Positions 13,753-54,259 of a DNA stretch of 64,000 bases are shown one piece after another. Every line of letters starts with the position of its first letter. The stretch's first letter is position 1. The translations under genes and the position numbers were made by a program. Origin of the DNA: a virus. The notes under the pieces were generated by a model. That model saw nothing but the letters and a program-made list of their open reading frames with translations. It was not told the DNA's origin and made no database searches. The DNA is taken from positions 32,001-96,000 of IMG/VR virus record IMGVR_UViG_3300044213_000170; one strand, written 5' to 3'.

Positions 13753-14768
13753 TTATTTTTCATTAATTTAATTTTTAAAGGATTTGTTTCTGCCGCGGTT
13801 AGTATTGCCTTTAGCACAAATAATTTCCCATATTTCTGAACAGCCGAGTTAATATCCTTGCAAGTTTCTCTCCAAACAGGAAAACTCACATCCCACCCAT
13901 ATTCGATAGCATGATCGATCATTTGTTTGCCAGGTTCATCCCAGTCTGGTACTACTATTACACGTTTGCCCAATGATTCGATCAACTCTGCTTGCTGTTC
14001 GCTTATTTGGTTGCCCTGCACACTGATCCCGTCAATACTCATAGCATCTATCGGCCCTTCACATACAATAACAAATTTATTGTTTGGTAACTGTTCGTCT
14101 AAATTAAAAACAAAATCCGAAGGATGGTTGCTATAGTATTTTGGTTTTATCCCGTCAACTAATGCTCTTGCAGTATATCCCACTATCCCTTGTTTGTATT
14201 TAAACGGAATAATCACTCGATGACTTAATTTGTGTTCTACTTCGGGTGTCCAATAAAAATCATATTTTTGAGCATTTAACCCTCGATCTCGTGTAATGTA
14301 GTTTACTGAATCAGAGAACAGGGTGGGCAAATTATTATAATCGGCCAAACGGTAAAATTCTGCCAATGCCCAAAAACTTTTAGCTTCCTTGGGTAACTCT
14401 CTTATTTCAAATTCGATTTTTTCTTCGGGTTCTTTAACATCTGCGGGTTCTATTAGATCTTTAATTCTGACAGCTTCGATTACCAGTCGCTGAACTTCGT
14501 TTTGATCTGCACCCAACCATCTCAGTAATTTTCTAAATTTAAAACTTAATGGGCGCCCAGGAATATAGCTGGTTTTAAATTTACAATTGAAACAAGAATA
14601 GCTTACTCCACCGTCCGGATTGGAAATTACCCCGCCGCGTCCCCGAGTGTCCAGTGACTCGCCGTTATGTTGACAACAAACCGCGTTGAAAGAAAGCCAA
14701 CCAGATTGGCTTTTTCTTCGTTTGGCTGGCAATAAACTTAATGTGTAATCTTGAACCGCATTGAACAT
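13749..14768 (-). CDS. DNA primase (zinc finger + TOPRIM)
   Basis: CC..H/CFNC zinc finger, VCEGPIDA, VPDWD, KDIN. Confidence 0.88.
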   Translation of the reverse strand: MFNAVQDYTLSLLPAKRRKSQSGWLSFNAVCCQHNGESLDTRGRGGVISNPDGGVSYSCFNCKFKTSYIPGRPLSFKFRKLLRWLGADQNEVQRLVIEAVRIKDLIEPADVKEPEEKIEFEIRELPKEAKSFWALAEFYRLADYNNLPTLFSDSVNYITRDRGLNAQKYDFYWTPEVEHKLSHRVIIPFKYKQGIVGYTARALVDGIKPKYYSNHPSDFVFNLDEQLPNNKFVIVCEGPIDAMSIDGISVQGNQISEQQAELIESLGKRVIVVPDWDEPGKQMIDHAIEYGWDVSFPVWRETCKDINSAVQKYGKLFVLKAILTAAETNPLKIKLMKNK

Positions 14769-39646: not shown

Positions 39647-40063
39647 TTATTCCGAATAAGTCAACCCCAACACTTTCATCATCTTGTGCTTGACTAGCAG
39701 GTTGGGGCTACGAAAAGCCTCGGCATCCTGAAAGCCCATCATTACACCAACCTCTGCCACAGCACCACTGCGGCAAACACCGGCGTGGCAATGAACAACC
39801 ACATCACTACGATTAAGCAGAGCCTGCTTGAGTATCAACACCAAACTATTTGCTTGATGGTCATTGATTTTGAAGTCATCGTCAAAAGGATCATCACGTT
39901 CTGCATCTAAGAATTGAAACTGATGAATACTACCGAACTTGTGCAATGGTGTAGGGAACTCCATACACGGGTCAACAATTTGGATCAATACACTATTTTC
40001 ACCAACATTAATGTGATGACCTTTTGGTATATCTCTAAGTGCTACGTTTTGAATCCAAGGCAT
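39647..40063 (-). CDS. protein-tyrosine/dual-specificity phosphatase
   Basis: VVHCHAGVCRS (HCX5R). Confidence 0.88.
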   Translation of the reverse strand: MPWIQNVALRDIPKGHHINVGENSVLIQIVDPCMEFPTPLHKFGSIHQFQFLDAERDDPFDDDFKINDHQANSLVLILKQALLNRSDVVVHCHAGVCRSGAVAEVGVMMGFQDAEAFRSPNLLVKHKMMKVLGLTYSE

Positions 40064-40310: not shown

Positions 40311-40440
40311 TAACAGATCAATTTGACAACATAACATAACATAATATATCATAATACGTAAATTGTTCGTCTCTTTACAGAGTGTGTTGTTAAATTGTCT
40401 TTACTAACTATTTATTAAAGAAAAATCTATCGTTAAAATT

Positions 40441-40549: not shown

Positions 40550-41383
40550 GCTCTGCATCCCTCGGCGGTAATTATACCTCTCAAGCCTTTTGCCGTCACT
40601 TGAAATATACAGGCATGACCCATATACTCCATCAGGTTACTTGACTATCACAGAGGCCGCCACCCGCTTCCCGACAGGGACCGTTCACGCATTGCCAGCG
40701 GCCTTTTGGTTCGAAGACTACCACCCGTGGGGCACGACCACCACTTCTCCTTCATCCGGGTCAGACTAGCTCAGCGTTACCCGAGCGGGTTCTTTCTCAG
40801 ACGCCACCGTTCTTTAGCGGCGTCTGATATTTTCTTCTTCTGTTCTTCAGACATTATTTTGGATCTTGTCTCCCAAGACTTTTTTGTTGTCTCACTTAAC
40901 TTTTGTCTAACTTCTTCAGTGTGGCAATTTGGGTAGCTACGTCTTTTATTAGCGTTGCTTATTTTTTGTCTAGTTTCAACACTAGTAATTTTTCCTCTTT
41001 TCGAACTACCTTTTTTCCAATTAGATTCTGGTGAAGTTCCTGAAGAACCTTCACCACCATTAGTCATATTCTTTAATATGCCTGTTCCTAAATCTTGTCT
41101 TCCATATTTTGAAATTAATTCAGTTTCTAAGTTAAATGCTTCCTGTTCAGACAAATTTTCATGTAACAGAACTATTCTCTTATAGTTTTTTGGAGTATGA
41201 ACTCCCCTACCATTAACACGATGCTGTTCCCAGGCACGCCGTTCTTTACCCTTACCAATATAGTAAGGTGAACCATCTTCTCTTAGATAAGCATAAACAT
41301 AGTATTCATTCATACTATTATTTATGTCAACCGGGTCATACCACCATCCTGCGGGTCACAGTATCTGCTGATTAGGCAGAACG
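40550..41383 (-). ncRNA. unidentified structured RNA interrupted by a GIY-YIG ORF
   Basis: GC-rich flanks; 5' GTTCTGC pairs with 3' GCAGAGC; promoter at 41410-41438. Confidence 0.55.
40777..41313 (-). mobile_element. GIY-YIG + NUMOD3 homing endonuclease
   Basis: YYVYAYLREDGSPYYIGKG; SVETRQKIS and HTEEVRQKLS repeats; paralog of 1255..1944. Confidence 0.88.
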
Positions 41384-41438: not shown

Positions 41439-42783
41439 TTAACTTTTGCAAATCTTCTGCCATTCTGTCCAGCACATCATAATTATGCATTCGATCTTGC
41501 CAATATGTAGTTATATCATTGTACAAACCGCTTTGTGTTCCGTATTCGCCCCATCGCCAATCACTACCGTCATATGGGACATATACCCAACACGTTTTAC
41601 CTAATGCACCTGCTAAATGAATCGGTGCACTGTCAATGCTAATTATTAAATCAAGCTGATCTAAAAATTTTGCAGTATCGTTAAAGTCAATTAACTTGGG
41701 TGTAACATCGATTATATTTAATTTACTACGAGCGACTTCTCCTTTGTCAATTATGTTAGCTTGTAGACTAACATAAGTAATGTCTTTAGGAAAATGGTCA
41801 AACATACTCAATGTCAAACTTCTATTTTTGTCATTGATATGTCTGGGATTACCTCGCCACGCTAACCCGACTTTAAATCCTGCGGGCAACTGTGGTACGT
41901 CACAATCTGCGGCCTCGAGATAAGCAGGAGGACTACCCCACCCGGTTTCTACTCCCAACGCATAAGGTATACTCATTTGGTATAACCAAAAATCGTATTT
42001 ACTAGGATCAATATTTTCGTAATCGCTAGTAATAGTTACGTTTTCACAAGTGTTGGAATTTTTAAATAATTTTTCTAACGCTTGTTCACACCCATAAGTC
42101 ACGTGACTTGCTACCTTACTCAAGGGTTCTAAATATCTAAAGAATTGAAGTCCGTCGCCGAACCCTTGCTCTTTACTGACAAATATCCTGGCACCTTTAA
42201 TGCTTTCTGGGTTGCCGTCCCATAAGGGTAATCTCCCCTTAACGTAACGGTCACTAAATTTTTCAGGTTCTGTTCGAAGATTCCTGTTTTCGTGCAATCT
42301 CCAGCCATCTTTAAAATTGCCAAGCCTTAATTCCACCAATCCCCAATCAAACCAAGATTTATAATGATCGGGCATTATATCTACTGCTTTTTTGTAATAA
42401 GGGATAGATTCTTTTTGTTTATGCATTCTGGATAATGCATATCCGATATTTGTGTAAAACTCAGGAACATTGTTATTGATACGAGACCCACGAGTCAACA
42501 TGTCGATGGCTTCTATATATCTGCAATTTTGTAATAACAGATATGCATACGAAAACATAAAGTTATAACATTGTGGGTGTTTTTCGTTCTGTATCAAAAT
42601 TTTAAAAATTTGTTCGGCCTTAACATAGTCTTGATCGGTTAATGCTTGTTTAGCCTCGATATACATATCTTCAGGGGTTTTTATCTGACTTTTAAGATTG
42701 TCAGAAATAGCTGCTCCGGCTTGATTAATGGCTTTGATTATTTGGTCAATATACGGTTGAATATCTGTCACTTGAATCTCCAA
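41425..42783 (-). CDS. TPR + glycosyltransferase (GT9-like) protein
   Basis: TPR repeats, EQGFGD, ISIDSAPIHLAGALG, DWRW. Confidence 0.85.
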   Translation of the reverse strand: MEIQVTDIQPYIDQIIKAINQAGAAISDNLKSQIKTPEDMYIEAKQALTDQDYVKAEQIFKILIQNEKHPQCYNFMFSYAYLLLQNCRYIEAIDMLTRGSRINNNVPEFYTNIGYALSRMHKQKESIPYYKKAVDIMPDHYKSWFDWGLVELRLGNFKDGWRLHENRNLRTEPEKFSDRYVKGRLPLWDGNPESIKGARIFVSKEQGFGDGLQFFRYLEPLSKVASHVTYGCEQALEKLFKNSNTCENVTITSDYENIDPSKYDFWLYQMSIPYALGVETGWGSPPAYLEAADCDVPQLPAGFKVGLAWRGNPRHINDKNRSLTLSMFDHFPKDITYVSLQANIIDKGEVARSKLNIIDVTPKLIDFNDTAKFLDQLDLIISIDSAPIHLAGALGKTCWVYVPYDGSDWRWGEYGTQSGLYNDITTYWQDRMHNYDVLDRMAEDLQKLIDKK

Positions 42784-42837
42784 TACAATTTATATTTACT
42801 TTTTTTAAATTCGACTCAAATCATATTAAATAGTTTT

Positions 42838-43116
42838 ATGTCAAAAGATCGAATCCCAATAAACTTACGTCGCAGAGTCTTAGAACGAGACGGGCCGCAT
42901 TGTGTTTATTGTGATGAGGATTTAACTGACAAAGAAATACATATGGACCATGTAATACCCGAATCACAAGGAGGTCCTACAACATATAGCAATTTACAAG
43001 TTACTTGTCGTAAATGTAATTTAGCCAAAGGCATATTAACCGAAGACGAGTTTGTTACCAGATTGAGAAATAGAGCTTGGAATATTCTCAATCGATTAGG
43101 CACACCAAAAAATTAA
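42838..43116 (+). CDS. HNH endonuclease
   Basis: RDGPHCVYC, DHVIP..GG, NLQVTCRKCN. Confidence 0.85.
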   Translation: MSKDRIPINLRRRVLERDGPHCVYCDEDLTDKEIHMDHVIPESQGGPTTYSNLQVTCRKCNLAKGILTEDEFVTRLRNRAWNILNRLGTPKN

Positions 43117-43745: not shown

Positions 43746-44308
43746 ATTAGATTTTCATTTTGCAAAATATCAACGATATTTTTGATCAATTCAATTTCAG
43801 TGCGGACATTCAATTCCAACACTTTATCATTGATACTTTGCTTTTCCTTTTTAAGTCCTAGCATTTCCTTACGGAATGCGTCAATATCTGCTTGGTCCAA
43901 GACCCCGGTGCTAACAGTGTCATGGTAACCGTATACACGGCTTGACTTCTCAGAAGATGCAATCTTTTGCAACTTACCTGCAACTACATCAAGATGCTCA
44001 GCAACTTCGCCTTCAACAAAACCTTTAAGGTGGCCGATGCGCTTATCGATATACGCAGCTTGTGTGAGCAGATCGCTTACACCGCTTTCAACATTGGCAC
44101 GACCAACGGCACTGCGGATTGCATATAGCGCCTTTGTCAGCTCGTTGCGGCGAGTATCCCCTTGTAATACTTGTGCCCGAGCGGCAACTAGTTCGATCCC
44201 TGGATTTTGGAATTCATTGATCGAAATCGAAGTCTTAACTTCGACGGTCTTGATTTGATCTTGAATTGCAGTTTGCAGTGCATTTGCTTTGCGAAGTGTG
44301 ATTTTCAT
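43742..44308 (-). CDS. coiled-coil hypothetical protein
   Basis: MKITLRKANALQ start with AAAAGGA RBS. Confidence 0.65.
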   Translation of the reverse strand: MKITLRKANALQTAIQDQIKTVEVKTSISINEFQNPGIELVAARAQVLQGDTRRNELTKALYAIRSAVGRANVESGVSDLLTQAAYIDKRIGHLKGFVEGEVAEHLDVVAGKLQKIASSEKSSRVYGYHDTVSTGVLDQADIDAFRKEMLGLKKEKQSINDKVLELNVRTEIELIKNIVDILQNENLI

Positions 44309-44871
44309 TTGATATTCCTTTTTGTAAAAAACAGTGAGTGTATGGCAAGTAAATAGCCGGACAATGTGCAATAAACATTATCAGGACCATTACAGCCGCT
44401 GTCGATAAGACAATGTGCAAAAGACAGTGATCTTAATTTTTCCAGGGTCAACAAACAAGGCTTTCGCCGTAATATAAAGCTGGGTCACTAAGATACGAGA
44501 GTAGTCATTAAAAGCCCTTTTCAAGAGGATTTTAACGTTTCGCTATCCCTAATCTCCACACACTAACCGGCTAGTTTTTAAAAACTAGCAAAATTTAATA
44601 ATCATAGTATATACTATAAAGTGTTAAGTTCATAATATTTTGGTTAAATTGATATCAATTTAACCAAATATAGGATTTGCAAGTAGTTCCGCCTCCCTCA
44701 TTCGGAACCATTTTACCAGTATTTTCTGTGAAGCCCGGGACTGGTTAGAGGTACGTATTAACAATAGTTACTTGAAGTTAATGTCGGTATCCCGATGCAT
44801 TTCTTCTCACAAGGTTTTCGACGCCTTGCTTTCACTACATATACACTTGCAAAATTTGTTGGTTTATTAAA

Positions 44872-44997
44872 CCATATAAAAATACACTCAATATCAGTTC
44901 CTTGCTGGCACAAAGATCCTTTCGCCCCTGCCAGGGGACCGAAGTAGTTACCGCTTTTAGGCACGGCACTTGCCCCGTCAAGCATACTTTTATATGG
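44872..44997 (-). ncRNA. long-stem small RNA family, copy A
   Basis: CCATATAAAAGTATGCT ... AGTGTATTTTTATATGG. Confidence 0.55.
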
Positions 44998-45157
44998 CAA
45001 CAAACTAATGCGATGGGATTCGAACCCAACCCTGCTCCCCTTTCGGCAATTCATCCACCCCTGCAAGGGTTTCAACTCTGCGTACTCGCTTCGCTGTGCT
45101 ACCAGCACACCACACAACCTGTCACAATCCATTGCAGTGTCTTGTGAGCAGTCTTGT

Positions 45158-45247
45158 ACCATATAGAAACACACTACCTACGCTCTCAGTCGTAGCCCAC
45201 CCGTGGAACCTTCGATCAACTCCGGCCTAAGTGTGTTTTTATATGGT
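45158..45247 (-). ncRNA. long-stem small RNA family, copy B
   Basis: ACCATATAAAAACACACT ... AGTGTGTTTCTATATGGT. Confidence 0.6.
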
Positions 45248-45462
45248 TAGTTCAAAGTCCCGATACAGGCATGACCCATATGACACTTTTTATCCGCTTA
45301 ACCGAGCCGGTGCGTTATTCACGGTGCGGCAAAATTAAGTTTCAGAACTAGCATATTTCTGGTCTGGGACTCGAACCCAGTGCGTGAACGGCTTCGCTTC
45401 AGGTAACGTTACCTCCTTAGCACTTACTAACACAGGTTAATTAAGCCAACTATTAAAGTTAC

Positions 45463-45549
45463 TGGTGAGACAGGTGGGGATCGAACCCACACGGGCATAA
45501 AGCCGCCAGATTAAAAGTCTGGTACCGCAACCATTTCGGTGTCTGTCCC
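45463..45549 (-). tRNA. atypical tRNA, anticodon TTT (Lys) with long variable arm
   Basis: CCAGA-ctTTTaa-TCTGG, 15-nt variable region, A8, A73, CCA. Confidence 0.85.
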
Positions 45550-45553
45550 ATAT

Positions 45554-45628
45554 TGGTCCTTGCTCAGAGAATCGAACTCTGTTTTTCCGGGTAAGAGCCG
45601 GGTACTTCGCCAGCAAAGTTTAGCAAGG
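45554..45628 (-). tRNA. tRNA-Lys(CTT)
   Basis: Loop ctCTTac, A8/U14, CCA. Confidence 0.9.
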
Positions 45629-45723
45629 ATGGCTTGTATTAAAATTATCTTTAATGTCTCACAACTTATTAAAGAGTTCTTTAATGTGCCATCCCAAGAC
45701 CAATACGGAGTCTAAGGATGACA

Positions 45724-45747
45724 CTATCGTTTCGTTGAACGTTTCAT
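45724..45747 (-). CDS. 7-aa leader peptide MKRSTKR
   Basis: AAAAGGAAA RBS; TTGACA-N17-TATAAT at 45775-45803; hairpin directly after TAG. Confidence 0.5.
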   Translation of the reverse strand: MKRSTKR

Positions 45748-45854
45748 GTCATTTCCTTTTGCGTTAAAAATATTATTATACAACTATCATGGTCAGTTGT
45801 CAACCGAATTTGTATGTGTTGTTTTCGCACAACACATAAAGCGGGGTCTGTTCT

Positions 45855-46226
45855 TTACTTCTTCAATGATTCTATTGTAGTAAGCAATTCCCTCCATAGC
45901 TTACTAGGATTTTCACCCTTATTAAAATCCATCAATGCCATATAAGTTTCTTGACTACCTTCTGGAATCTTGAAATAGATATTAGCATAGGTGTAATCAA
46001 AATCATCGTCTGCATCATGGCTGTACCATGGGTGTTCTGACATCTCATCAAAAACATCTTCATAGTCTTCACGGTTACCGCCACCATTACGTGTATGAAC
46101 AACAATGAAACCATCTTCCATATAGACATTACGAAAACGACCAAAGTCAGCCTTCGTCTTGCCTAACAAGGACAATAGCTTGTCACTGTCAGGATTCATT
46201 CCAAAAACTAGATTATACAATGACAT
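45855..46226 (-). CDS. hypothetical protein
   Basis: GRFR...TRNGGGNR...DDDFDYTYA; AAGGAG RBS. Confidence 0.7.
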   Translation of the reverse strand: MSLYNLVFGMNPDSDKLLSLLGKTKADFGRFRNVYMEDGFIVVHTRNGGGNREDYEDVFDEMSEHPWYSHDADDDFDYTYANIYFKIPEGSQETYMALMDFNKGENPSKLWRELLTTIESLKK

Positions 46227-46245
46227 ATTGTCTCCTTTGTAAATG

Positions 46246-46321
46246 TGGTAGGTCTTACTGGAATCGAACCGGTGGTCTTCACCGTGTCATGGTGACGATT
46301 TAGCCTCTAATCTAAAGACCT
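46246..46321 (-). tRNA. tRNA-Val(GAC)
   Basis: Loop atGACac, CCA. Confidence 0.9.
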
Positions 46322-46325
46322 ATTG

Positions 46326-46472
46326 TTAATCTAATCCGTTACCACTAGTGGATAAGGACGACTTTTGTTGTCTACGCAAAGCCTTATTAGTTTTGCGATG
46401 TGAACCTGCTTTTCTCATTAATGCTAAGGCAACGAAGCGGTTACGTTGCTTGACAATGTTTACTCGCTTCAT
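46326..46472 (-). CDS. small basic protein (48 aa)
   Basis: MKRVNIVKQRNRFVALALMRKAGSHRKTNK...; AAGGA RBS. Confidence 0.55.
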   Translation of the reverse strand: MKRVNIVKQRNRFVALALMRKAGSHRKTNKALRRQQKSSLSTSGNGLD

Positions 46473-46491
46473 TATGTTTCCTTCATTAAAT

Positions 46492-46567
46492 TGGTTGCAG
46501 AGGAGGGAATCGAACCCCCGACCTCCAGGTTATGAGCCTGGCCAGATACCGCTTCTAACACTCTGCG
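46492..46567 (-). tRNA. initiator-like tRNA-fMet(CAT)
   Basis: C1:A72 mismatch, loop ctCATaa. Confidence 0.85.
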
Positions 46568-46587
46568 ATTCTATTTATAAAAATACT

Positions 46588-46664
46588 TGGAGGTCTGGGT
46601 AGGATTTTAACCTACGAATCAACTGGTTTGCAATCAGTGCCATTAAACACTCTGGTACCAGACC
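46588..46664 (-). tRNA. tRNA-Cys(GCA), aberrant T loop
   Basis: U73, T loop TTAAAAT. Confidence 0.75.
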
Positions 46665-46670
46665 ATAAAA

Positions 46671-46740
46671 CTATTATGAAACACACTAACCCGCTTGGCT
46701 ACCCTAAAAAGGACCGCGCTTCCAATGCGTTTTACAATAG
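46671..46740 (-). ncRNA. long-stem small RNA family, copy C
   Basis: CTATTGTAAAACGCATT ... AGTGTGTTTCATAATAG. Confidence 0.55.
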
Positions 46741-47635
46741 TGCCTAAGGTTGAGATTACACCTTAAGCCAACAGCACCTCGAGCATTATAGTACGCCTTG
46801 CGAGCATACCTTCTCTCGACATCCACATAAGCCATTGCTGTACCTATGTCTGCTATCAGCATCGCCGTTTTAAGTCAGGCAGTAGACTTGACATCATATG
46901 CTATTCTACGCTTTCTATCCCGTTGAACTTGCGGTCCATTAAGCCTTGCGAGCTACGAAACTTCTTGCATAAACAGTTTTTACCTTGCGAGTTACGACTG
47001 ACTGAATTACCTTGCGGCTCCAGTATTAGATGCTTTTCACATATGACCGAGGCAGTCTTTGCATTTTAATCGTTAATTGGATTTGAACCAATAGTCGACT
47101 CCTTAACAGGGAGTTGCGTTACCATTACGCTATAACAACCTACTGCGATGAGCTGCCTCTGTTGCTACACAATCTTTTGGACTGCATAATACAACTCACC
47201 ACGTACCTTTTGTCTTGCGGACTACTCAGTCGTCTTTTGCGATCATTGTCGGGTCTCGGCTTTCGCGTACCTCCAACAACCACTCAAACTGCATACAAGC
47301 CCTTAGGTGCAACCCCTTGGACAAGTATACTACCCTTTCTCATACCAAATAACTGAATTGGTTTCGTAGTGAAGTCAGCACCACCTGTTACTTTCCATCT
47401 ACTCAAGTTCCCATCCGTCGAAACTTCAGGCTTGTAAGCAGACGTTCTTTCCACTACATTCAGCGTCTCTGTTACCACCACCGGTCTTATCAGTGATGGG
47501 CACCTCGCGGTGCTGAGCAGGCTTGTTTATCTGAACTATTACTAGCGGACTTATGTAGGCATACATCCTTTGGCTCCATCGCTGGAGTTATTCTTCGTAA
47601 ACGGCAAGCCGCCTACAGGACAATAAACTGCCCTA
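46741..47635 (-). ncRNA. GOLLD-like large ornate RNA (~0.9 kb)
   Basis: No credible ORF; many GCAA/GAAA tetraloop hairpins; 3' AAGGTGTAATCTCAACCTT; inside a phage tRNA cluster; family recalled from memory, not searched. Confidence 0.72.
47068..47140 (-). tRNA. tRNA-Asn(GTT)-like cloverleaf embedded in the GOLLD-like RNA
   Basis: D arm GCGT/ACGC, ACTCC-ctGTTaa-GGAGT, ATTGG-TTCAAAT-CCAAT, G:U-rich acceptor, no CCA. Confidence 0.7.
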
Positions 47636-47768
47636 AAATCTTGTTTGTTCTGTGTCTTGCACTATTTGCCTAACTCAACAGCTTTACTCGAGTTTACTGT
47701 TTATTGCGTCGGTTACATAACGCTTGATCATGCCTCTGTGCTTGCAAGGCACAGAACAAACAAGATTT
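47636..47768 (-). repeat. 26-bp inverted repeat enclosing ~80 nt
   Basis: AAATCTTGTTTGTTCTGTG.CTTGCA arms. Confidence 0.8.
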
Positions 47769-47820
47769 ACAAAATTTACTTTTTAAAGAACAAACTTAGT
47801 TAATTTCTAACTAAGAATCT

Positions 47821-47849
47821 ATTGTAGCAAATTATATAAAATTTGTCAA
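47821..47849 (-). promoter_or_regulatory. sigma70 promoter upstream of the GOLLD-like RNA
   Basis: TTGACA-N17-TACAAT. Confidence 0.7.
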
Positions 47850-48022
47850 CCTATGGGGCTTTTGACGATCCAGCCCAGTGCATGTAAGTTCAAGAAAGTA
47901 CTCCACATAGTCATTGCAAACAATCCGATTTTTACAACAATGTTTAACCAGCCCCTGGTGCTCCAGCGCACCAAGAAATAGGTAAAGATCATGCCCGACA
48001 CAGCGAAATACCAGTTAATCAT
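47846..48022 (-). CDS. small membrane protein (58 aa)
   Basis: MINWYFAVSGMIFTYFLV...; two hydrophobic stretches; promoter at 48054-48082. Confidence 0.5.
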   Translation of the reverse strand: MINWYFAVSGMIFTYFLVRWSTRGWLNIVVKIGLFAMTMWSTFLNLHALGWIVKSPIG

Positions 48023-48094
48023 TTGAAAGCGCCTTTAGTTAATCAATACGAATATTATAGTCCCAAAACGATTTATAGTCAACTTGGTTTTATA

Positions 48095-48130
48095 TAGTAC
48101 TAAAGTACTAGTACTAGTACTTTAGTACTA
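48095..48130. repeat. perfect 36-bp palindrome of AGTACT units
   Basis: TAGTACTAAAGTACTAGTACTAGTACTTTAGTACTA equals its reverse complement. Confidence 0.9.
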
Positions 48131-48135
48131 AATTT

Positions 48136-48210
48136 TGGCCCGGCGTACAGGAATCGAACCCATATTCGTGGTGTAGAAGACCACTGTATTATCCATTATA
48201 CTAACGCCGG
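48136..48210 (-). tRNA. tRNA-Arg(TCT)
   Basis: Loop ctTCTac, CCA. Confidence 0.92.
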
Positions 48211-48214
48211 ATTC

Positions 48215-48290
48215 TGGTGGTCGGAAGAGCACTCGAAGCTCCACATTCCTCCTTATGAGGGAGGCTCTCTTCCTCTTAAGATATCCGACC
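48215..48290 (-). tRNA. tRNA-Met/Ile2(CAT)
   Basis: CCTCC-ctCATaa-GGAGG, CCA. Confidence 0.85.
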
Positions 48291-48293
48291 ATA

Positions 48294-48475
48294 ATATTTG
48301 TTAAGCTGGCTCACTTTGAGCACCTTCGTCCTCCACGGACGCTAGTCTTATGCCATCCTTGTTGAATCAGTCTCCGCAGGGCCCATTGGCTACCTATCAA
48401 CAATTCATCGCGTCCCTTGCTCGTACCCGTCGGTAATTACTCAGGCTTTCGTTTAAACTACAGCTTAACAAATAT
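48294..48475 (-). ncRNA. candidate small RNA closed by a perfect 15-bp inverted repeat
   Basis: ATATTTGTTAAGCTG ... CAGCTTAACAAATAT around a GC-rich interior. Confidence 0.5.
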
Positions 48476-48581
48476 CATATAGAAACACACTGGTGTCCTT
48501 GCTCCTCCAGGATGACACTCCTGTCCAAATGAGGTTTATGACCGGCTTGTCGATCAGCAACAATGTGTTTTTATATGATAT
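48472..48581 (-). ncRNA. long-stem small RNA family, copy D
   Basis: ATATCATATAAAAACACATT ... AGTGTGTTTCTATATGATAT. Confidence 0.6.
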
Positions 48582-48744
48582 CGAAGATGGGAATCGAACC
48601 CACTAACTACCGGTGCGATGCCGGTTGTGCTACGCTCATTATACAACAAGTTTGTTCCGTTTGCAACCGGACTCGCTATATAACTTGGCACTAACTTTCC
48701 ATGTCGTTTTCTTCATTACCATATAGAATGTGTTTTTATATAAG

Positions 48745-48822
48745 TGGAGCACAGGGAGGGATTTGAACCCCCGGTTTTAGGGATTTGCAATCCCTTGCAT
48801 TGGGCCACTCTGCCACCTGTGC
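48745..48822 (-). tRNA. tRNA-Cys(GCA)
   Basis: Loop ttGCAaa, U73, CCA. Confidence 0.92.
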
Positions 48823-48830
48823 ATATTTTA

Positions 48831-48906
48831 TGGTAGCGACGGTGGGACTCGAACCCACGATAAACTCCGTATGAAGGAGGTACATTAGCCGCTATGCTAA
48901 ATCACT
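48831..48906 (-). tRNA. tRNA-Met/Ile2(CAT)
   Basis: Loop ttCATac, CCA, weak acceptor stem. Confidence 0.8.
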
Positions 48907-48913
48907 ATATTTT

Positions 48914-48989
48914 TGGTGCCGCCTCCCGGGATCGAACCAGGTTCCATGGATTTTCAATCCACCGCAATGACCACATTTGCTAAAGCGGC
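48914..48989 (-). tRNA. tRNA-Phe(GAA)
   Basis: Loop ttGAAaa, CCA. Confidence 0.92.
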
Positions 48990-49148
48990 AATGTAGATCG
49001 GGAGCCTAACTATCCTCCTGGGAGGACTCGCTAGATTGTCTCGAATAGGCAAGTTTATCTACCACGAATAGCCATCTGTTGTTGTCGCATAGCTAAGTCA
49101 CTATGCTAGGCTAGGTGGGACTCAAACCTATCGTCTATCCCTTAAACT

Positions 49149-49223
49149 TGGGGTATCGTACCAGGATCGAACTGGTGATAGCGGAATCACAACCCGCGGT
49201 TTTACCACTAAACTAACGACACC
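49149..49223 (-). tRNA. tRNA-His(GTG)
   Basis: G-1:C73, loop ttGTGat. Confidence 0.93.
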
Positions 49224-49231
49224 ATATCAAT

Positions 49232-49308
49232 TGGCGCGACTGGAGAGATTCGAACTCCCGACACCTGACTTCGTAGGCCAGTACTCTATCCAACTGAGCT
49301 ACAGTCGC
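49232..49308 (-). tRNA. tRNA-Arg(ACG)
   Basis: Loop ctACGaa, CCA. Confidence 0.95.
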
Positions 49309-49314
49309 AAAAAA

Positions 49315-49391
49315 TGGCCCGCCCTGACGGACTCGAACCGCCAACAACTGATTTCGAAGACCAGGACTCTATCCAGTTGAGCTAAAGGCGG
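49315..49391 (-). tRNA. tRNA-Arg(TCG)
   Basis: Loop ctTCGaa, CCA. Confidence 0.93.
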
Positions 49392-49400
49392 TCTAAATAT

Positions 49401-49475
49401 TGGCAGGGGGTTAGGGAATCGAACCCTATCACCTACGGTCAAAGCGTAGTATCTGCTCCAATCGATTTACCCCCA
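49401..49475 (-). tRNA. tRNA-Gln(TTG)
   Basis: Loop ctTTGac, G73, A8. Confidence 0.88.
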
Positions 49476-49559
49476 ACTGATCTGAAGTGTTGCTTATTCT
49501 ATACAATGTACAATATAAGCAACAGTTTGTTGGTCTCGCATAATGCGAATTATAAAACT

Positions 49560-49636
49560 TGGCGACCCCGGATGGATTTGAACCACCGACATTTGGTTTT
49601 GGAGACCAACGTTCTGCCAGACTGAACTACGGAGCC
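49560..49636 (-). tRNA. tRNA-Trp(CCA) with U11-A24
   Basis: D stem GTTC/GAAC, loop ctCCAaa. Confidence 0.95.
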
Positions 49637-49643
49637 ATTAAAT

Positions 49644-49734
49644 TGGCGGAGGGCTAGAGAGTCGAACTCTAAAGGCGCTATTAACGCTCGGCGGTTTTCA
49701 AGACCGTTACCGTCACCAATCGGCTTGGCCCTCC
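49644..49734 (-). tRNA. tRNA-Ser(TGA)
   Basis: Loop ctTGAaa, long variable arm. Confidence 0.93.
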
Positions 49735-49860
49735 ATTTTGTGATTGTCGTTACGGGGTTTACCGTACCTGAAACTAGTCCCACCGCTTGCCAATCTTACT
49801 GAATGGACCTATAGACTTATGTGGCGCTTCCGTGCATTCTCATTACACTATGACAAAACT

Positions 49861-49938
49861 TGGCGCAGACCAAAGGACTCGAACCTTTGCGGGAATCTAG
49901 AATGCGGAGGACATGCCCCCTACCCCTCCATTATCTGC
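49861..49938 (-). ncRNA. tRNA-like RNA with acceptor/T arm and CCA but no canonical D or anticodon arm
   Basis: GCAGAT/GTCTGC-G-CCA, CAAAGG-TTCGAGT-CCTTTG. Confidence 0.6.
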
Positions 49939-49945
49939 ATTAACT

Positions 49946-50021
49946 TGGTGCCGTCGCCATGAATCGAACACGGGACCTTCTCATTACAAGTGAGTTGCTC
50001 TACCAACTGAGCTACAACGGC
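49946..50021 (-). tRNA. tRNA-Thr(TGT)
   Basis: Loop ctTGTaa, CCA. Confidence 0.93.
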
Positions 50022-50030
50022 TTTAATAAA

Positions 50031-50109
50031 TGGCGCACCGTACGAGATTCGAACTCGTGATCTCCGCCGTGACAGGGCGGCGCCTTAGGCCAGACTGAGC
50101 TAACGGTGC
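50031..50109 (-). tRNA. tRNA-Asp(GTC)
   Basis: Loop ctGTCac, G73. Confidence 0.93.
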
Positions 50110-50114
50110 AAATT

Positions 50115-50190
50115 TGGCGCTCGGTAGGGGAATCGAACCCCTCTTCCCGCCGTGAAAGGGCGGTGTCCTAGACCGATAGACGAACCGAGC
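50115..50190 (-). tRNA. tRNA-Glu(TTC)
   Basis: Loop ctTTCac. Confidence 0.93.
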
Positions 50191-50272
50191 ATAATATCTT
50201 GAGACGGTGGAATCAAACCACTCTAGTCAGCATCTTCTCTGTGAAGATGCCCGTAATCATACTCCTCAAAAT

Positions 50273-50339
50273 ACTATATGTAAGTACACTACTCATCGGC
50301 TGTGCCATTTGACTGTTCGGCAATGTACTTGCATATAGT
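50273..50339 (-). ncRNA. long-stem small RNA family, copy E
   Basis: ACTATATGCAAGTACATT ... AGTGTACTTACATATAGT. Confidence 0.55.
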
Positions 50340-50459
50340 TTAGGGCTGTGGTCACTTTCGACTTAACATTTAACTAAGGCTTTCTTTATGCATTTATATC
50401 CTTAGCACCCTTCTTAAACATTATTATAAAAGAAAATACTTTTATTGTCAACTATGTAG

Positions 50460-50541
50460 TGGATGCGGTTGGAGTCGAACTTACTCATCCGAAGAAACTG
50501 GGTTACAGCCAGCCACACCTCTCCAACTGTGTCGCACTTCC
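50460..50541 (-). pseudogene. degenerate tRNA-Tyr(GTA) duplicate
   Basis: Similar to neighbour, mismatched T and acceptor stems, no CCA. Confidence 0.65.
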
Positions 50542-50548
50542 ATTAATT

Positions 50549-50634
50549 TGGTGGGTAAGGATGGATTCGAACCAACTCATCCGAAGGAAAGAGATTTACA
50601 GTCTCCCGCGCCTCTCCAACTGCGCCGCTTACCC
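50549..50634 (-). tRNA. tRNA-Tyr(GTA)
   Basis: Loop ctGTAaa, variable arm, CCA. Confidence 0.92.
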
Positions 50635-50714
50635 ATAGTACATATTATATCGAAAAAAATAATTTTCGTCAACTAAAAAAAAAATAGCCGTAAACTTGTT
50701 AAGGCTATTTTGTT

Positions 50715-50789
50715 TGGTGGAGGATAGCGGGGTCGAACCGCTGACTGAAGCTTGCAAAGCTACCGTGTTCCCAACTATACCAATCCCCC
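50715..50789 (-). tRNA. tRNA-Ala(TGC)
   Basis: G3:U70, loop ttTGCaa. Confidence 0.93.
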
Positions 50790-50800
50790 CGATAACTTAT

Positions 50801-50974
50801 TTATTCTTCTTTGCCACGCTTGGTGGACTTTGCCAACCGATTATTAGTTTCAATCATCTTAGTATACATTTTGAAATACTCGCGACGATCGGTATTGTTT
50901 AAAATCCTTGCAGCACGGCGCTTAACCGCTTTAGGCATTTTTATTGCTTTAATGTCATATCCTCTACAGGTCAT
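50801..50974 (-). CDS. small basic protein (57 aa)
   Basis: MTCRGYDIKAIKMPKAVKRRAA... Confidence 0.5.
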   Translation of the reverse strand: MTCRGYDIKAIKMPKAVKRRAARILNNTDRREYFKMYTKMIETNNRLAKSTKRGKEE

Positions 50975-51000
50975 TTTATTTCTTTCAAAAATAATTAATT

Positions 51001-51219
51001 GTAGTTCAGTGTCCTCAGGTTTATCACTGATGTTTAGACGTTCAGAGCCGGACTTCCTAACGTCGAGTTCTTCCAGGACTTGTTACTCGGGCTACTAAGC
51101 CAGGTGCTCCTTTTCAGCTACCGCCCAAAATGGACAGTGGGGAGTTGAACCCCCTCCTGCTTTACACTAGTTCAACGTTCGAACATCTTACTAATGTGCT
51201 TTTCACTTGCTAACACTAC
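51001..51219 (-). ncRNA. YrlA/Y-RNA-like RNA with circularly permuted tRNA module
   Basis: CAGG - T arm GGGG-TTCAACT-CCCC - closed acceptor CTGTCCA-ttt-TGGGCGG - TA - D arm GCT/AGC - CCTG. Confidence 0.6.
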
Positions 51220-51224
51220 AAACT

Positions 51225-51300
51225 TGGTCTCCGTAGAAGGATTTGAACCTTCACCGCATGGTCCCAAACCATGAACGCTACCGGGTTACGCTATACGGAG
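51225..51300 (-). tRNA. tRNA-Pro(TGG)
   Basis: Loop ttTGGga, CCA. Confidence 0.92.
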
Positions 51301-51731
51301 TTTATACTTTTCAACATAATCGTCTATAATGGGCTGAACCTCATTAACATAACGACTATGAACATAACTATGATGTGTAGGACATAAAGGAACTAAATTC
51401 GCAGGTTCATTGTTATCATGGTTGTGATCGTGATGATGCACTGCTACAATTTTATCTTCCTCACACACTACACACTTTTTATCGTGGTGTAAGAAGCAAA
51501 TGGATTGATACTTTTCGCCCTTCCAATTACCGTTACTTTCACCACTTCTAAAATGCTTGTTTGAACAACTTCTACTGCAAGTACCTTTAGAGTTCTTGAA
51601 GTCCTTAATAGGGGTCGAACATACTATACATTCTTTTATATTAACAGGATTTAGATAACAATTATCCTCGTGCCGTTTAATATTTTGTGGTTCGTTTCTT
51701 TACCGCAGTATTGACAATTAATATGTTTCAT
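51286..51731 (-). pseudogene. zinc-finger HNH homing endonuclease with a 1-nt frameshift near 51690
   Basis: MKHINCQYCGKE in one frame; PQNIKRHEDNC...CSRSC...VHH.D.N..NN..NLVPLCPTHH in the -1 frame. Confidence 0.65.
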
Positions 51732-51800
51732 ACATTTATTTATCATTTAGCGCACAGAATGAGATATTCTCAAACAGACTGCTCTACACTCCGAAATCTC

Positions 51801-51876
51801 TGGTAGGACGTGACGGTCTCGAACCGCCGACATTCACGGTGTAAACGTGACGCTCTACCAACTGAGCTAACGTCCT
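51801..51876 (-). tRNA. tRNA-Val(TAC)
   Basis: Loop ttTACac. Confidence 0.94.
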
Positions 51877-52029
51877 ATATCTTTTACTTATGTTTATTAT
51901 ACAGACACAAATAATAAATGTCAAATAATTTTTGCAATTTCCGGTGCAAAAACTGCACTTGCAAATGCTATATAAAATAATAATATCAACATACTCTAAT
52001 CCTCTAGACTATAGTATATTTAATATGTA

Positions 52030-52103
52030 TGGAGCGGAATATCAGAATCGAACTGATGACGTCTGCTTGGAAGGCAGTGGTTTTACCATTAAACTAATCC
52101 CGC
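52030..52103 (-). tRNA. tRNA-Gly(TCC)
   Basis: Loop ctTCCaa, U73. Confidence 0.93.
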
Positions 52104-52113
52104 ATTTTATTCT

Positions 52114-52190
52114 TGGTGCCTTGACCTGGATTCGAACCAGGGACCTACGCCTTATCAAGACGGTGCTACTACCAGCTGAGCTATCAAGGC
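52114..52190 (-). tRNA. tRNA-Ile(GAT)
   Basis: Loop ttGATaa. Confidence 0.93.
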
Positions 52191-52195
52191 CAATT

Positions 52196-52280
52196 TGGTG
52201 CCCCCCAAGAGACTCGAACTCTCACGCCTTGCGGCGCTGGAACCTAAATCCAGTGCGTCTACCAATTTCGCCAAAGGGGC
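52196..52280 (-). tRNA. tRNA-Leu(TAG)
   Basis: Loop ttTAGgt, variable arm. Confidence 0.94.
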
Positions 52281-52289
52281 AATGATGTT

Positions 52290-52366
52290 TGGCTCCTCGA
52301 CGTGGGCTCGAACCACGGACATCTTGATTAACAGTCAAGCGCAACTACCAACTGTGCTATCGAGGA
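52290..52366 (-). tRNA. tRNA-Asn(GTT)
   Basis: Loop ctGTTaa, G73. Confidence 0.94.
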
Positions 52367-52415
52367 ATAAAATTCAACAGTATATATTATATATGCGATA
52401 TAAATTTGCTGTCAA

Positions 52416-52516
52416 GTATTTTAGAACACACTAGTGATTCGACCTAGTAAATGGGCCCGCCACAATAGTTTATCGTTCTATCGGCCGAGTTATTCGTCTA
52501 ATGTGCTCTAAAATAC
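52416..52516 (-). ncRNA. long-stem small RNA family, copy F
   Basis: GTATTTTAGAGCACATT ... AGTGTGTTCTAAAATAC. Confidence 0.55.
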
Positions 52517-52693
52517 CTTCTTATTAAGAAGATATGTTAGGGTTGTACCCTAACCAGTTATCTGTACTTTGCTGTTATCGCCAGCATTTCATCCAACTGT
52601 CCGCCCATTTGTCACATTTTATATGGCGTTGTGTGCTGGCTCGCGTTGCCTTATCACGCCGAAAATTAACAATAGTCAATTTTCTTTTTACAT

Positions 52694-52726
52694 AAACAAA
52701 AACCCCAGGGTGTTTAATCCTGGGGT
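52694..52726 (-). terminator. intrinsic terminator (putative attenuator)
   Basis: ACCCCAGG-loop-CCTGGGGT followed by TTTTGTTT. Confidence 0.85.
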
Positions 52727-52751
52727 CCTTAGAGTGGTTGTAGTGTTGTTT

Positions 52752-52895
52752 TTACGCTACAATGTCCCCCTGGACCCCGATCTTAATCTCCGGTGTACGA
52801 TCATTATGATTTCCAGTAACCATACACCAAGAGGCAGACATCGCCTGTCTCTGTTTGGCATAAAAGTTTACTGATGATGATAAAATCGTGTTCAT
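52752..52895 (-). CDS. 47-aa putative attenuator leader peptide containing all 20 amino acids
   Basis: MNTILSSSVNFYAKQRQAMSASWCMVTGNHNDRTPEIKIGVQGDIVA*; perfect promoter just upstream. Confidence 0.7.
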   Translation of the reverse strand: MNTILSSSVNFYAKQRQAMSASWCMVTGNHNDRTPEIKIGVQGDIVA

Positions 52896-52905
52896 GATGT
52901 TTTGT

Positions 52906-52934
52906 ATTATATGTTATTTATACTTTGTTGTCAA
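52906..52934 (-). promoter_or_regulatory. sigma70 promoter with nested TATAAATA late box
   Basis: TTGACA-acaaagTATAAATAaca-TATAAT. Confidence 0.8.
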
Positions 52935-52975
52935 GAAGTTTTGATTATGTTGTAAAAATACAACAAATTAAAATT

Positions 52976-53060
52976 TGGTGCGCCTAGCCGGAATCGAACC
53001 AGCATGACCGAAGTCGGGAGATTTTAAGTCTCCTGTGTCTACCTATTTCACCATAGGCGC
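52976..53060 (-). tRNA. tRNA-Leu(TAA)
   Basis: Loop ctTAAaa, variable arm. Confidence 0.94.
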
Positions 53061-53129
53061 ATTTGTTTTGCAATAACTCTATTGTAGCAATATTTCTATT
53101 TATTGTCAACAATATTTTGTTGTTATTTT

Positions 53130-53221
53130 TGGTACCAGCGGAGGGGATCGAACCCTCTCAAGAACGCTAATCTGGCGCTAAAAGTCTTATAAGGACTCTC
53201 TGACTTCCAAGTCTCGCTGGT
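53130..53221 (-). tRNA. atypical tRNA, anticodon TAT, long variable arm, small D loop
   Basis: ACCAGCG/CGCTGGT-A-CCA; GACT-TGGA-AGTC; AGAGTC-ctTATaa-GACTTT. Confidence 0.8.
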
Positions 53222-53226
53222 AAAAC

Positions 53227-53303
<77 letters not shown>

Positions 53304-53320
53304 GATTTTTCTATTATATG

Positions 53321-54259
53321 TTATTCTGCATTTATTGTCAATGACAAATTATTTATTGCATCTATCTGCTGAAATCGTAAATCCATCTTAGTAAACATAG
53401 AAGTATCTTGTTCGATTAAAATGCATCGACGATTTTTGTTAGATGCAGCAATACCAGTGCTTCCACTGCCCGCAAAAGTATCCAACACCATATCACCAGG
53501 TTTGGATAACAATTCAATAAAGTACTCTAACACTTCAGTAGGCTTTTGTGTGGGATGAATTTTATCTTTGCCCAATCCGCCGCTATAGGTAATTGTGTTA
53601 GGAATAACACATTCGATCAATCCGTTTGATCTTTTGCGATCAGCCAACATCTTTTTACTATCAGCTAATGCCTTAGCAAACGCCTTGTCGATTGGTATAC
53701 CTTGAGAGATATATTTGTATACGATACTGCTGACTTTGTCTGCCGCCGCATAACGCTCAACCATAGATCCTTCAGTCGCATCTGCATTAAATGTTCTAGA
53801 GCCCTTGGGTTTAATGCCGAACAAAACGTATTCACAGCCACTTACTGGATTTACTCGACGATTGAATGGGACTGCTGCAGGTTTTTTCCAAGTCCATACA
53901 CGCTTAGACTCAAACCCAGCGTCGTTCATTGCGGTAATGAGATAACTTAAATATCTATCACTGATAAAAATTGCAAAACTTCCGCCCTTACGAAGTTTTG
54001 TAAACCACATCCTTGCCCAATCATTTAACTGTTGTTGGAATTCTTCATGACCAACATCGTCCCAGTCGTTATCAAATTCTTCACTGAAATTTTGATTATG
54101 GATTGTTGTTTTATTTTTGCCGGTTTCCTTGTCGAGCCAAATTGGATTTGCACCGTTTTTACTGATATTGTAAGGCGGATCTGTCAACAACAAATCAATC
54201 GAAGAATCGGGTATTTGATGTGCAATTGTCAAACAATCGCCGTTTAATCTAGTAATCAT
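53321..54259 (-). CDS. N6-adenine/N4-cytosine DNA methyltransferase (beta class)
   Basis: TDPPY, HPTQKP, LDTFAGSGST; promoter at 54267-54295 supports ATG 54259. Confidence 0.92.
   Translation of the reverse strand: MITRLNGDCLTIAHQIPDSSIDLLLTDPPYNISKNGANPIWLDKETGKNKTTIHNQNFSEEFDNDWDDVGHEEFQQQLNDWARMWFTKLRKGGSFAIFISDRYLSYLITAMNDAGFESKRVWTWKKPAAVPFNRRVNPVSGCEYVLFGIKPKGSRTFNADATEGSMVERYAAADKVSSIVYKYISQGIPIDKAFAKALADSKKMLADRKRSNGLIECVIPNTITYSGGLGKDKIHPTQKPTEVLEYFIELLSKPGDMVLDTFAGSGSTGIAASNKNRRCILIEQDTSMFTKMDLRFQQIDAINNLSLTINAE

Follow-up and report, generated by a model that had tools for sequence, protein, structure and literature searches.

Why should one phage transfer RNA (tRNA) array carry six dispersed hairpins that share a closing stem and enclose six interiors with no relation to one another? 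The array in question lies within a 64,000-nt stretch (the window; bases 32001-96000) of IMGVR_UViG_3300044213_000170, a 145.4-kb IMG/VR virus record (hereafter G000; CheckV completeness 42%) from an uncultured, freshwater, T4-like phage with a GC content of 39%. The T4-like machinery of this phage includes a T4-type large terminase, a UvsX/RecA-like recombinase, a DnaB-like helicase and a ribonucleotide reductase. Here we show that the hairpins belong to a family of RNA modules in which one stem, under selection for pairing at the RNA level, encloses structured cargo that is exchanged as a unit, and we weigh what such a stem might do.

Six hairpins and their relatives

The array (44.4-53.4 kb) is a dense non-coding region on the minus strand that holds 31 of the 34 tRNAs in the window, together with several GC-rich non-tRNA RNAs, a few tiny open reading frames (ORFs) and one HNH remnant. 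Ten promoters of the form TTGACA-N17-TATAAT, either perfect or matching at 11 of 12 positions, occur within 9 kb (44300-53500), all of them on the minus (tRNA) strand, so that the array is split into many short transcription units. The six hairpins listed in a preliminary description of the window are all present and fold on this strand (Table 1), each with a folded interior of its own and a closing stem of 17-21 bp (17-20 bp had been proposed), and their z-scores against dinucleotide shuffles range from -2.5 to -6.1. As had been noted, AGUGU opens every 3′ arm and YU closes every 5′ arm, and four copies (copies 2-5) have a mismatch, A.C or C.A, at exactly 10 bp from the top of the stem, copies 1 and 6 being fully paired at this position. 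Copies 1, 3 and 6 also contain three to four G.U pairs (four in copy 1, three in copy 6) that are valid on the minus strand only and correspond to A.C mismatches on the plus strand.

The 5′ arm of copy 1 begins on the GCCA that closes a 160-nt RNA containing a T arm, copy 3 lies 4 nt past the 3′ end of a GOLLD RNA and 4 nt ahead of tRNA-Cys, and copy 4 comes after a conserved tRNA-like RNA with a UCA end, an upstream neighbour that is kept in two other phage contigs (L038 and L067). Copies 5 and 6 are located inside or at the end of short transcription units: a consensus promoter is found about 75 nt upstream of copy 5 and tRNA-Glu 82 nt downstream of it, and copy 6 stops 1 nt short of the -35 box of the consensus promoter that follows. 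CCA is retained in the arm by copies 1 and 2 only. The arm motif has 11 matches in the window against 2.55 expected, all of them in tRNA regions, and none of 100 shuffles reached 11; across the 145-kb record, convincing arm matches are confined to tRNA regions. A collapsed remnant had been reported as well; its arm sequence, which lies directly after the CCA of the tRNA-Cys at 48745-48822, is real, but it is not stable as an RNA hairpin (-0.6 kcal/mol, z +1.05). One further, doubtful copy (z -1.5 on the minus strand and -2.0 on the plus strand) pairs better on the plus strand, opposite to the tRNAs.

Some of the RNAs that precede the hairpins can be described further. The tRNA-like RNA before copy 4, which receives no ARAGORN call, is also found in L038 (about 3190-3239) and L067 (about 13790-13840). 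It has a T arm, an acceptor-like end and a stem capped by the 7-nt loop CAUCGCA, and this stem covaries among phages (ACCGG/CCGGU, ACCCG/CGGGU, ACUGG/CCAGU). It ends in UCA, not CCA, and a hairpin module always comes next. A T-arm-like GGGUUCGA(R)UCCC is present in each of two GC-rich non-tRNA RNAs (about 215 and 160 nt), whose ACCA and GCCA ends stand immediately before copies 2 and 1, respectively. The 215-nt RNA comes straight after tRNA-Lys(UUU), which at 87 nt, with a long variable arm, is unusual for a tRNA-Lys. The GOLLD RNA upstream of copy 3 probably extends to about 47814 and has a near-consensus promoter upstream; a 26-bp inverted repeat with 96% complementarity is probably part of its variable 5′ domain. 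We know of no study of how the 3′ end of GOLLD is formed.

Conservation among relatives of the hairpins, which the preliminary description had proposed to look for, is massive. A scan with a 17-mer from the 3′ arm detected the constant stem in at least 120 IMG/VR phage contigs, with the partner arm present in nearly all matches. From the related loci (1.2 Mb, with 2016 tRNAs called by ARAGORN) we extracted 245 copies, 234 of them unique, at about 1 to at least 8 copies per contig. The consensus in RNA sense consists of TACCAUAUAAAAACACAYU, a variable interior of 4 to about 127 nt and AGUGUGUUUCUAUAUGGUA, with a central A.C mismatch. No copies were found outside tRNA/non-coding RNA (ncRNA) arrays, either in the loci examined or in the 145-kb record.

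A 19-mer scan of prokaryotes, using one representative genome for each of 185,579 species, gave seven matches. Four of these have a paired arm and occur on 1.4-2.8 kb contigs packed with tRNAs, in freshwater metagenome-assembled genomes of unrelated phyla; they look like mis-binned phage fragments. A fifth match (L142) is on a similar short, tRNA-bearing contig and has no paired arm, and the remaining two, on long bacterial contigs with no partner arm, are consistent with chance. Among 50,697 cultured-phage records, a blastn search with copy 2 (word size 11, E ≤ 10) returned nothing, and the whole region as a megablast query matched tRNAs only; masking of AT-rich arms is possible, which makes this weak evidence. 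The preliminary description had not recognised the family, and neither does Rfam 15: cmscan at the gathering threshold, and at E ≤ 1 over 44400-53400, gave tRNA, GOLLD and chance matches, none of which overlaps the six copies. A full-text literature search found no description of the element, and a cryo-electron microscopy preprint on GOLLD does not mention it. The family has apparently not been described so far.

The modules have a fixed relationship to the RNAs around them. Orientation could be scored from the A.C and U.G asymmetry in 201 of 254 copies, all of which are co-oriented with the nearest tRNA; among copies within 20 nt of a tRNA, 151 have the same polarity and none the opposite (26 unscorable). 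The upstream tRNA overlaps the stem by exactly 5 nt in 136 of the 245 copies, which means that the (N)ACCA of the stem is the tRNA discriminator plus CCA. At the other side, 109 copies have the next tRNA at a distance of -4 to +10 nt from the 3′ arm. Where no upstream tRNA is called, the stem often still begins on the CCA that ends another structured RNA. Four of the five Rfam-verified GOLLD RNAs (those of the window, L010, L062 and L044) have a copy within 4 nt downstream, and at the fifth (L013) a tRNA intervenes between GOLLD and the hairpin. Modules also follow tRNA-like RNAs and at least 19 tRNA types besides Lys, Gln and Glu, and some stand alone. They are most likely punctuation inside polycistronic tRNA/ncRNA operons, with whose RNAs they would be co-transcribed.

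Selection on pairing and exchange of cargo

We tested the 19 pairs of the stem in an alignment of 115 sequences against 500 shuffles and slid-partner controls. Paired cells made up 92.2% of the alignment, compared with 84.2% in the shuffles and 30-58% in the slid controls. Double-sided changes were seen at 16 of the 19 pairs (159 cells), and none of the 500 shuffles reached any of these measures. With the exception of pair 10, all pairs show many more G.U and U.G than A.C and C.A on the sense strand. Among the 234 unique copies, for instance, pair 18 is U.G in 153, C-G in 60, U-A in 20 and C.A in none. The compensatory changes and minus-strand pairing proposed for the six window copies are thereby borne out across the family, and selection acts on pairing at the RNA level. 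At pair 10 the mismatch is itself the majority state (A.C in 114 unique copies, A-U in 42 and G-C in 37; A.C in 69 of the 115 aligned sequences). Pair 20 is formed in 80% of copies, by six pair types, which extends the helix to 20-22 bp or about two turns, and pairs 21-22 are formed in about 50%.

The interiors behave differently from the stem. The 245 cargos fall into about 170 sequence clusters, and none of 237 copy pairs within one contig shares cargo, where only about 1.3 would be expected to do so by chance. Related cargos of different phages carry compensatory changes in their internal hairpins, and all 115 related cargo pairs have the same sense, none being inverted, despite the near-palindromic arms. 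The cargo family of copy 1 recurs in eight other phage contigs, always within the constant stem and between unrelated flanks, and the cargo of copy 2 is 93% identical to that in L011, L136 and L137, where it is likewise enclosed by the constant stem and has unrelated flanks. The same cargo occurs behind different tRNAs, and 22 cargo pairs are at least 90% identical where their upstream tRNAs are less than 90% identical; copy pairs whose upstream tRNAs are at least 90% identical have unrelated cargo in 138 of 148 cases. In at least three contig pairs (L070/L100, L023/L108 and L030/L100), identical arms and 60-nt flanks that are 97-100% identical on both sides surround cargo unrelated in sequence and length. 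In a further pair (L072/L123) the arms differ at three positions, and a 49-nt cargo stands against a 5-nt loop.

Since flanks and arms are identical around unrelated cargo, the breakpoints must lie inside or at the edge of the arms. Cassette replacement occurs, and the cargo is conserved, structured, directional and exchanged as units, so that the preliminary view of a genuine family with one shared stem and interchangeable cargo holds. We infer that the arms provide portable homology for this exchange: as near-invariant DNA sequences they would allow phage recombination machinery to swap cargo between sites and between phages, and the phage-encoded UvsX/RecA-like recombinase supports exchange by the phages' own recombination. 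The cargos encode nothing. No cargo was among the best 150 matches of each of two Rfam scans of 28 related loci, and a T-loop-like hairpin is present in only about 10 of 218 cargos. As for anticodon-loop decoys, cargo hairpin loops showed no enrichment of YU-NNN-R loops or of UUU, UUG or UUC, and a search for antisense targets of the window cargos in the phage's own 145 kb gave only chance 10-12-mers.

Exchange of this kind could also be the mark of selfish palindromic DNA cassettes, MITE-like or spread by gene conversion, that multiply in tRNA arrays via their inverted repeats, possibly aided by homing endonucleases, and whose transcription has no function. The strict polarity of the modules towards tRNAs and the absence of inverted cargo contradict this as the sole explanation, even though replacement between identical flanks, the occurrence of one cargo behind different tRNAs and the 'empty' alleles are what it would predict. 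A variable copy number per contig, the decayed copies in the window and the GIY-YIG/NUMOD3 and HNH genes that flank or sit in the array fit it as well. It does not account for the preference for G.U over A.C on the sense strand or for compensatory changes in cargo, nor for an anchor that is a CCA end without a duplicated target site, and it is further opposed by the confinement of the copies to tRNA/ncRNA arrays and by cargos that encode nothing. We therefore regard it as decidedly unlikely, although as a mode of spread it may be compatible with the processing role considered below.

Several known classes of repeat resemble the module in part. Miniature inverted-repeat transposable elements (MITEs; Neisseria Correia elements, ERIC and RUP) have terminal inverted repeats of about 20-26 bp, many dispersed copies and long hairpins when transcribed. 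Correia hairpins are RNase III substrates. MITEs have a conserved interior, occur in either orientation and show target-site duplication, whereas the phage module has a variable interior (about 170 clusters in 245 copies), a fixed polarity of modules and cargo (151:0 and 115:0) and a repeat that includes the tRNA CCA, the flanking TA being paired stem plus tRNA end. Integron attC sites are likewise constant, imperfect, strand-specific palindromes with a mismatch that serve many exchangeable cassettes at fixed sites. In the phage family, by contrast, the variable part is non-coding, 30-120 nt long and enclosed by the palindrome, and the asymmetry between strands is that of RNA wobble pairing. 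No GTTRRRY core is present in the arm consensus, and no integrase was found among the scanned ORFs near the array or the ten commonest neighbours, no dedicated integrase search having been run. The repeats are not those of a CRISPR array, as they are inverted and pair with each other.

What the stem might do

The reading that we put first, with confidence about evenly divided for and against it, is that the module is a double-stranded RNA punctuation or processing stalk, probably a substrate of host RNase III. It would mark the 3′ terminus of the RNA upstream, and a small RNA capped by the stem would be set free or protected. The many sigma-70-type promoters in the array would drive transcription of the modules together with tRNAs, GOLLD and tRNA-like RNAs. 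Each module would form an AU-rich, 19-22 bp double-stranded stalk around a compact, GC-rich folded cargo, its 5′ strand typically beginning on the (A)CCA of the preceding RNA and its 3′ strand stopping a few nt before the next. RNase III would cut the two-turn helix close to its central A.C mismatch, RNase P would cut at the next tRNA, and 3′ exonucleases would trim back to CCA. In combination, these steps would separate neighbouring RNAs and release the cargo as an exonuclease-resistant small RNA with a half-stem cap. A stalk left uncut would shield the 3′ end of the upstream RNA, for example GOLLD.

Two features of RNase III stalks are seen in the module: an uninterrupted helix of about 20-22 bp, in which pair 20 is added to the 19 conserved pairs and one A.C lies at the centre, and a site between the mature RNAs of what would be one precursor. 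The cleavage step itself is suggested by helix geometry and by analogy. No RNase III gene was found in G000 or in five carrier records, and since two of the latter are complete genomes, any such cut would be made by the host enzyme. The closest parallels are the stems that bracket 16S and 23S ribosomal RNA (rRNA) and the T7 early sites such as R1.1, in which a helix of about two turns flanks or separates the mature RNAs of a polycistronic precursor. Central imperfections are common in these stalks, and the T7 sites resemble each other in sequence. They enclose mature rRNA or a simple loop, unlike the phage module, which combines a stem that is near-invariant over more than a hundred unrelated-looking contigs with a CCA anchor and a hypervariable, exchangeable small RNA inside, and whose cleavage is predicted.

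The setting recalls species 1 and 2 of phage T4 (rnaC and rnaD), small non-tRNA RNAs of a tRNA cluster that are co-transcribed with it and released by tRNA-processing enzymes, with segB nearby. The constant 19-bp stem is present in neither; rnaC adopts a tRNA-like fold that includes a T arm, and rnaD lacks a long closing stem. Both resemble the CCA-ending RNAs upstream of the hairpins, not the hairpins themselves. We rejected them as homologues, as folds of T4 71046-70908 and 71171-71053 show no constant long stem and only the setting is shared. By analogy, the module would thus work most like the RNase III stalks of rRNA operons and T7, while sitting where the unrelated T4 species 1 and 2 RNAs sit.

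Several observations weigh against this role. The stem sequence is itself strongly conserved across very different phages, with many positions above 90% in the unique copies; a site recognised by RNase III through structure alone needs no sequence conservation, and the excess may reflect a sequence-specific binder or recombinational homogenisation. To our knowledge, no role in recognition by RNase III has been established for a conserved A.C mismatch at the centre of the helix. Among the window copies, four of six have no CCA in the arm and abut no called tRNA, so that the function must go beyond the marking of CCA ends. The loop is only 4-5 nt long in some alleles, which implies that cargo is dispensable at some sites, and the preference for tRNA-Lys, -Gln and -Glu described below is left unexplained by a generic processing site.

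Conservation beyond the needs of pairing would be expected if the stem were instead a sequence-specific handle for a phage or host RNA-binding protein, following a Ro60/Y-RNA- or Cas6-like logic, with the modules working as ribonucleoproteins that display cargo and RNase III not being the reader. The A.C at pair 10, kept in about half to 60% of copies, and the top of the stem (ACAYU/AGUGU), kept even in the diverged copies 3, 5 and 6, point in this direction, and two small, very basic ORFs within the array could encode RNA-binding peptides, or be no genes at all. These mini-ORFs match no family, however, and when the ORFs of 120 loci were clustered, no candidate partner strictly co-occurred with the hairpin. 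The commonest neighbour, an RNaseH-like ORF of the PF04308 (YkuK-type) family (33 of 120 loci, such as L026:2973-3629; also in G003, G004 and G005), is absent from the complete carrier genome G001 and from G000. Other common neighbours (metallophosphoesterase, dCMP deaminase, HNH, RNA polymerase omega-like and DSP phosphatase ORFs) do not strictly co-occur either, and no TROVE/Ro60 was found in G000, which is a fragment. Moreover, wobble pairing by itself accounts for the extra conservation of the 3′ arm: a transition leaves the stem paired only if it falls in the A/C-rich 5′ arm. We consider a protein handle unlikely on balance.

Y RNAs themselves (YrlA/Yrn1, bound by Ro60/Rsr) have a long conserved closing stem formed by the 5′ and 3′ ends with a variable structured module opposite, and are present in some phages. 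The phage module gives no Rfam match to them even at E < 1 and has no Ro-binding bulged helix; no TROVE was found in the G000 fragment, and the cargos are not tRNA-like as a rule. The module is not an intrinsic terminator, as the stem is AU-rich, the downstream 8 nt are mixed A/T without a U run and a terminator scan calls no copy. Promoter or terminator readings of the arms (T4-late-like TATAAAAA, MotA-box-like) were also dropped, since the positions covary as pairs and there is too little space ahead of the next tRNA for a start site.

The tRNAs that carry the module are not a random sample. A module follows 63 of 87 Lys(UUU) genes (29 of 41 clusters at 90% identity), 12 of 37 Gln(UUG) clusters, 9 of 35 Glu(UUC) clusters and 5 of 25 Leu(UAG) clusters, and at most four clusters of every other type (Fisher test at cluster level, 1e-24). 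As these loci were chosen through the motif, the absolute frequencies are biased, and the comparison of tRNA types within loci is fair. Anticodon nucleases classically attack the Lys(UUU), Gln(UUG) and Glu(UUC) tRNAs, all three of which have 2-thio-U34. The bias follows codon demand only in part: GAA, AAA and CAA rank second, fourth and ninth among the codons of G000, and GCA and AAT are equally frequent.

One explanation for this bias would be a tRNA-specific device, in which the stem pairs with the ACCA end and masks or protects chiefly these three tRNAs. Until processing, it would guard them against 3′ exonucleases, host nucleases directed at tRNAs or charging too early, with the cargo as incidental loop filler. 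Alleles without cargo and the status of the three tRNAs as nuclease targets are in keeping with such a device. But the module also follows GOLLD, tRNA-like RNAs and many other tRNA types, or stands alone, and cargo families are conserved with covariation and a fixed orientation. In the window, no copy stands directly after tRNA-Lys, -Gln or -Glu; tRNA-Lys(UUU) is followed by the 215-nt CCA-ending RNA, and copy 2 comes only after that. On this evidence we hold the tRNA-specific device to be very improbable.

A broader proposal gives the cargo the leading part. The modules may form a phage-borne library of exchangeable RNA cassettes, processed from tRNA operons, in which the constant double-stranded scaffold presents any of hundreds of small structured RNAs. 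These would counter host proteins of defence or RNA handling as decoys, sponges or aptamers and would be reshuffled via the arms in an arms race, with the Lys/Gln/Glu link representing a coupling to anticodon-nuclease targets. We offer this only tentatively and think it improbable as it stands.

Other features of the array and implications

Homing-endonuclease-type genes are found at or within the array of the window, as segB is in the T4 tRNA cluster (Table 1). An ORF for a DSP/PTP-like cysteine phosphatase adjoins tRNAs in the window and is found beside tRNA arrays in 15 of 120 loci (for example L049:2010-2594); it might act on RNA ends. The stretch separating tRNA-Arg from the promoter that follows contains an almost perfect AT-rich palindrome, which may be a terminator acting in both directions or a site for a protein. 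Related tRNA arrays (L062:754-1160, L019:13913-14302 and L086:4094-4286) hold two-piece (permuted) transfer-messenger RNA genes and a group I intron.

Table 1. Hairpin copies and accompanying features of the window (copies bounded by the 19-bp stem, except copy 4).
Feature	Position	Strand	Description
Copy 1	44870-44999	minus	19-bp+ stem; 92-nt cargo of three hairpins; -48.7 kcal/mol, z -3.5
Copy 2	45157-45248	minus	Near-consensus stem AACCAUAUAAAAACACACU / AGUGUGUUUCUAUAUGGU; A.C at pair 10; 54-nt cargo
Copy 3	46669-46742	minus	Diverged stem CACUAUUGUAAAACGCAUU / AGUGUGUUUCAUAAUAGUU; 36-nt cargo; z -3.4
Copy 4	48471-48582	minus	21-bp stem (19-bp part 48473-48580); A.C at pair 10; cargo of about 70 nt; z -4.6
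Copy 5	50272-50340	minus	Diverged stem ACUAUAUGCAAGUACAUU / AGUGUACUUACAUAUAGU; C.A at pair 10; 31-nt cargo; z -6.1
Copy 6	52414-52518	minus	Diverged, fully paired stem GGUAUUUUAGAGCACAUU / AGUGUGUUCUAAAAUACU; 67-nt cargo; z -5.9
Decayed remnant	48718-48741	minus	5′ arm fused to outer half of 3′ arm; cargo and upper stem deleted
Doubtful degenerate seventh copy	40317-40399		Between tRNA-Ser and tRNA-Thr; AT-rich cargo; excluded from the count
GOLLD RNA, conserved 3′ domain	46747-47202	minus	Rfam RF02032; 223 bits, E 6e-62
tRNA-Asn	47067-47140	minus	Nested inside GOLLD
Promoter upstream of GOLLD	47849-47821		Near-consensus
Inverted repeat	47636-47661 / 47743-47768		26 bp
tRNA-like RNA	48582-48717	minus	Before copy 4
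215-nt RNA	45248-45462	minus	GC-rich, non-tRNA
160-nt RNA	44998-45157	minus	GC-rich, non-tRNA
tRNA-Lys(UUU)	45463-45549	minus	87 nt
Homing-endonuclease-type gene	40777-41313	minus	GIY-YIG-like ORF with NUMOD3
HNH gene	42646-43116	plus	Intact
HNH remnant	51286-51468	minus	Short; upstream reading frame apparently broken
DSP/PTP-like phosphatase ORF	39647-40063	minus	Adjoins tRNAs
Basic mini-ORF	46326-46472	minus	48 aa
Basic mini-ORF	50801-50974	minus	57 aa
Palindrome	48092-48133		42 nt (21+21 nt, no spacer)

The tRNA arrays of phages are usually viewed as a codon supply or as counter-defence sets of tRNAs, and the gaps between the genes as spacers. In many freshwater phages, these gaps are occupied by structured RNAs of a large and uncatalogued family, all of which share one constant helix. 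Should the cargo RNAs prove functional, they would be a new and highly diverse store of small RNAs in phages, with its own means of shuffling; if only the stem matters, it would be a new, sequence-conserved processing or protection signal for tRNAs and GOLLD. The module could also be regarded as a natural, stable scaffold for the expression of small RNAs from tRNA operons.

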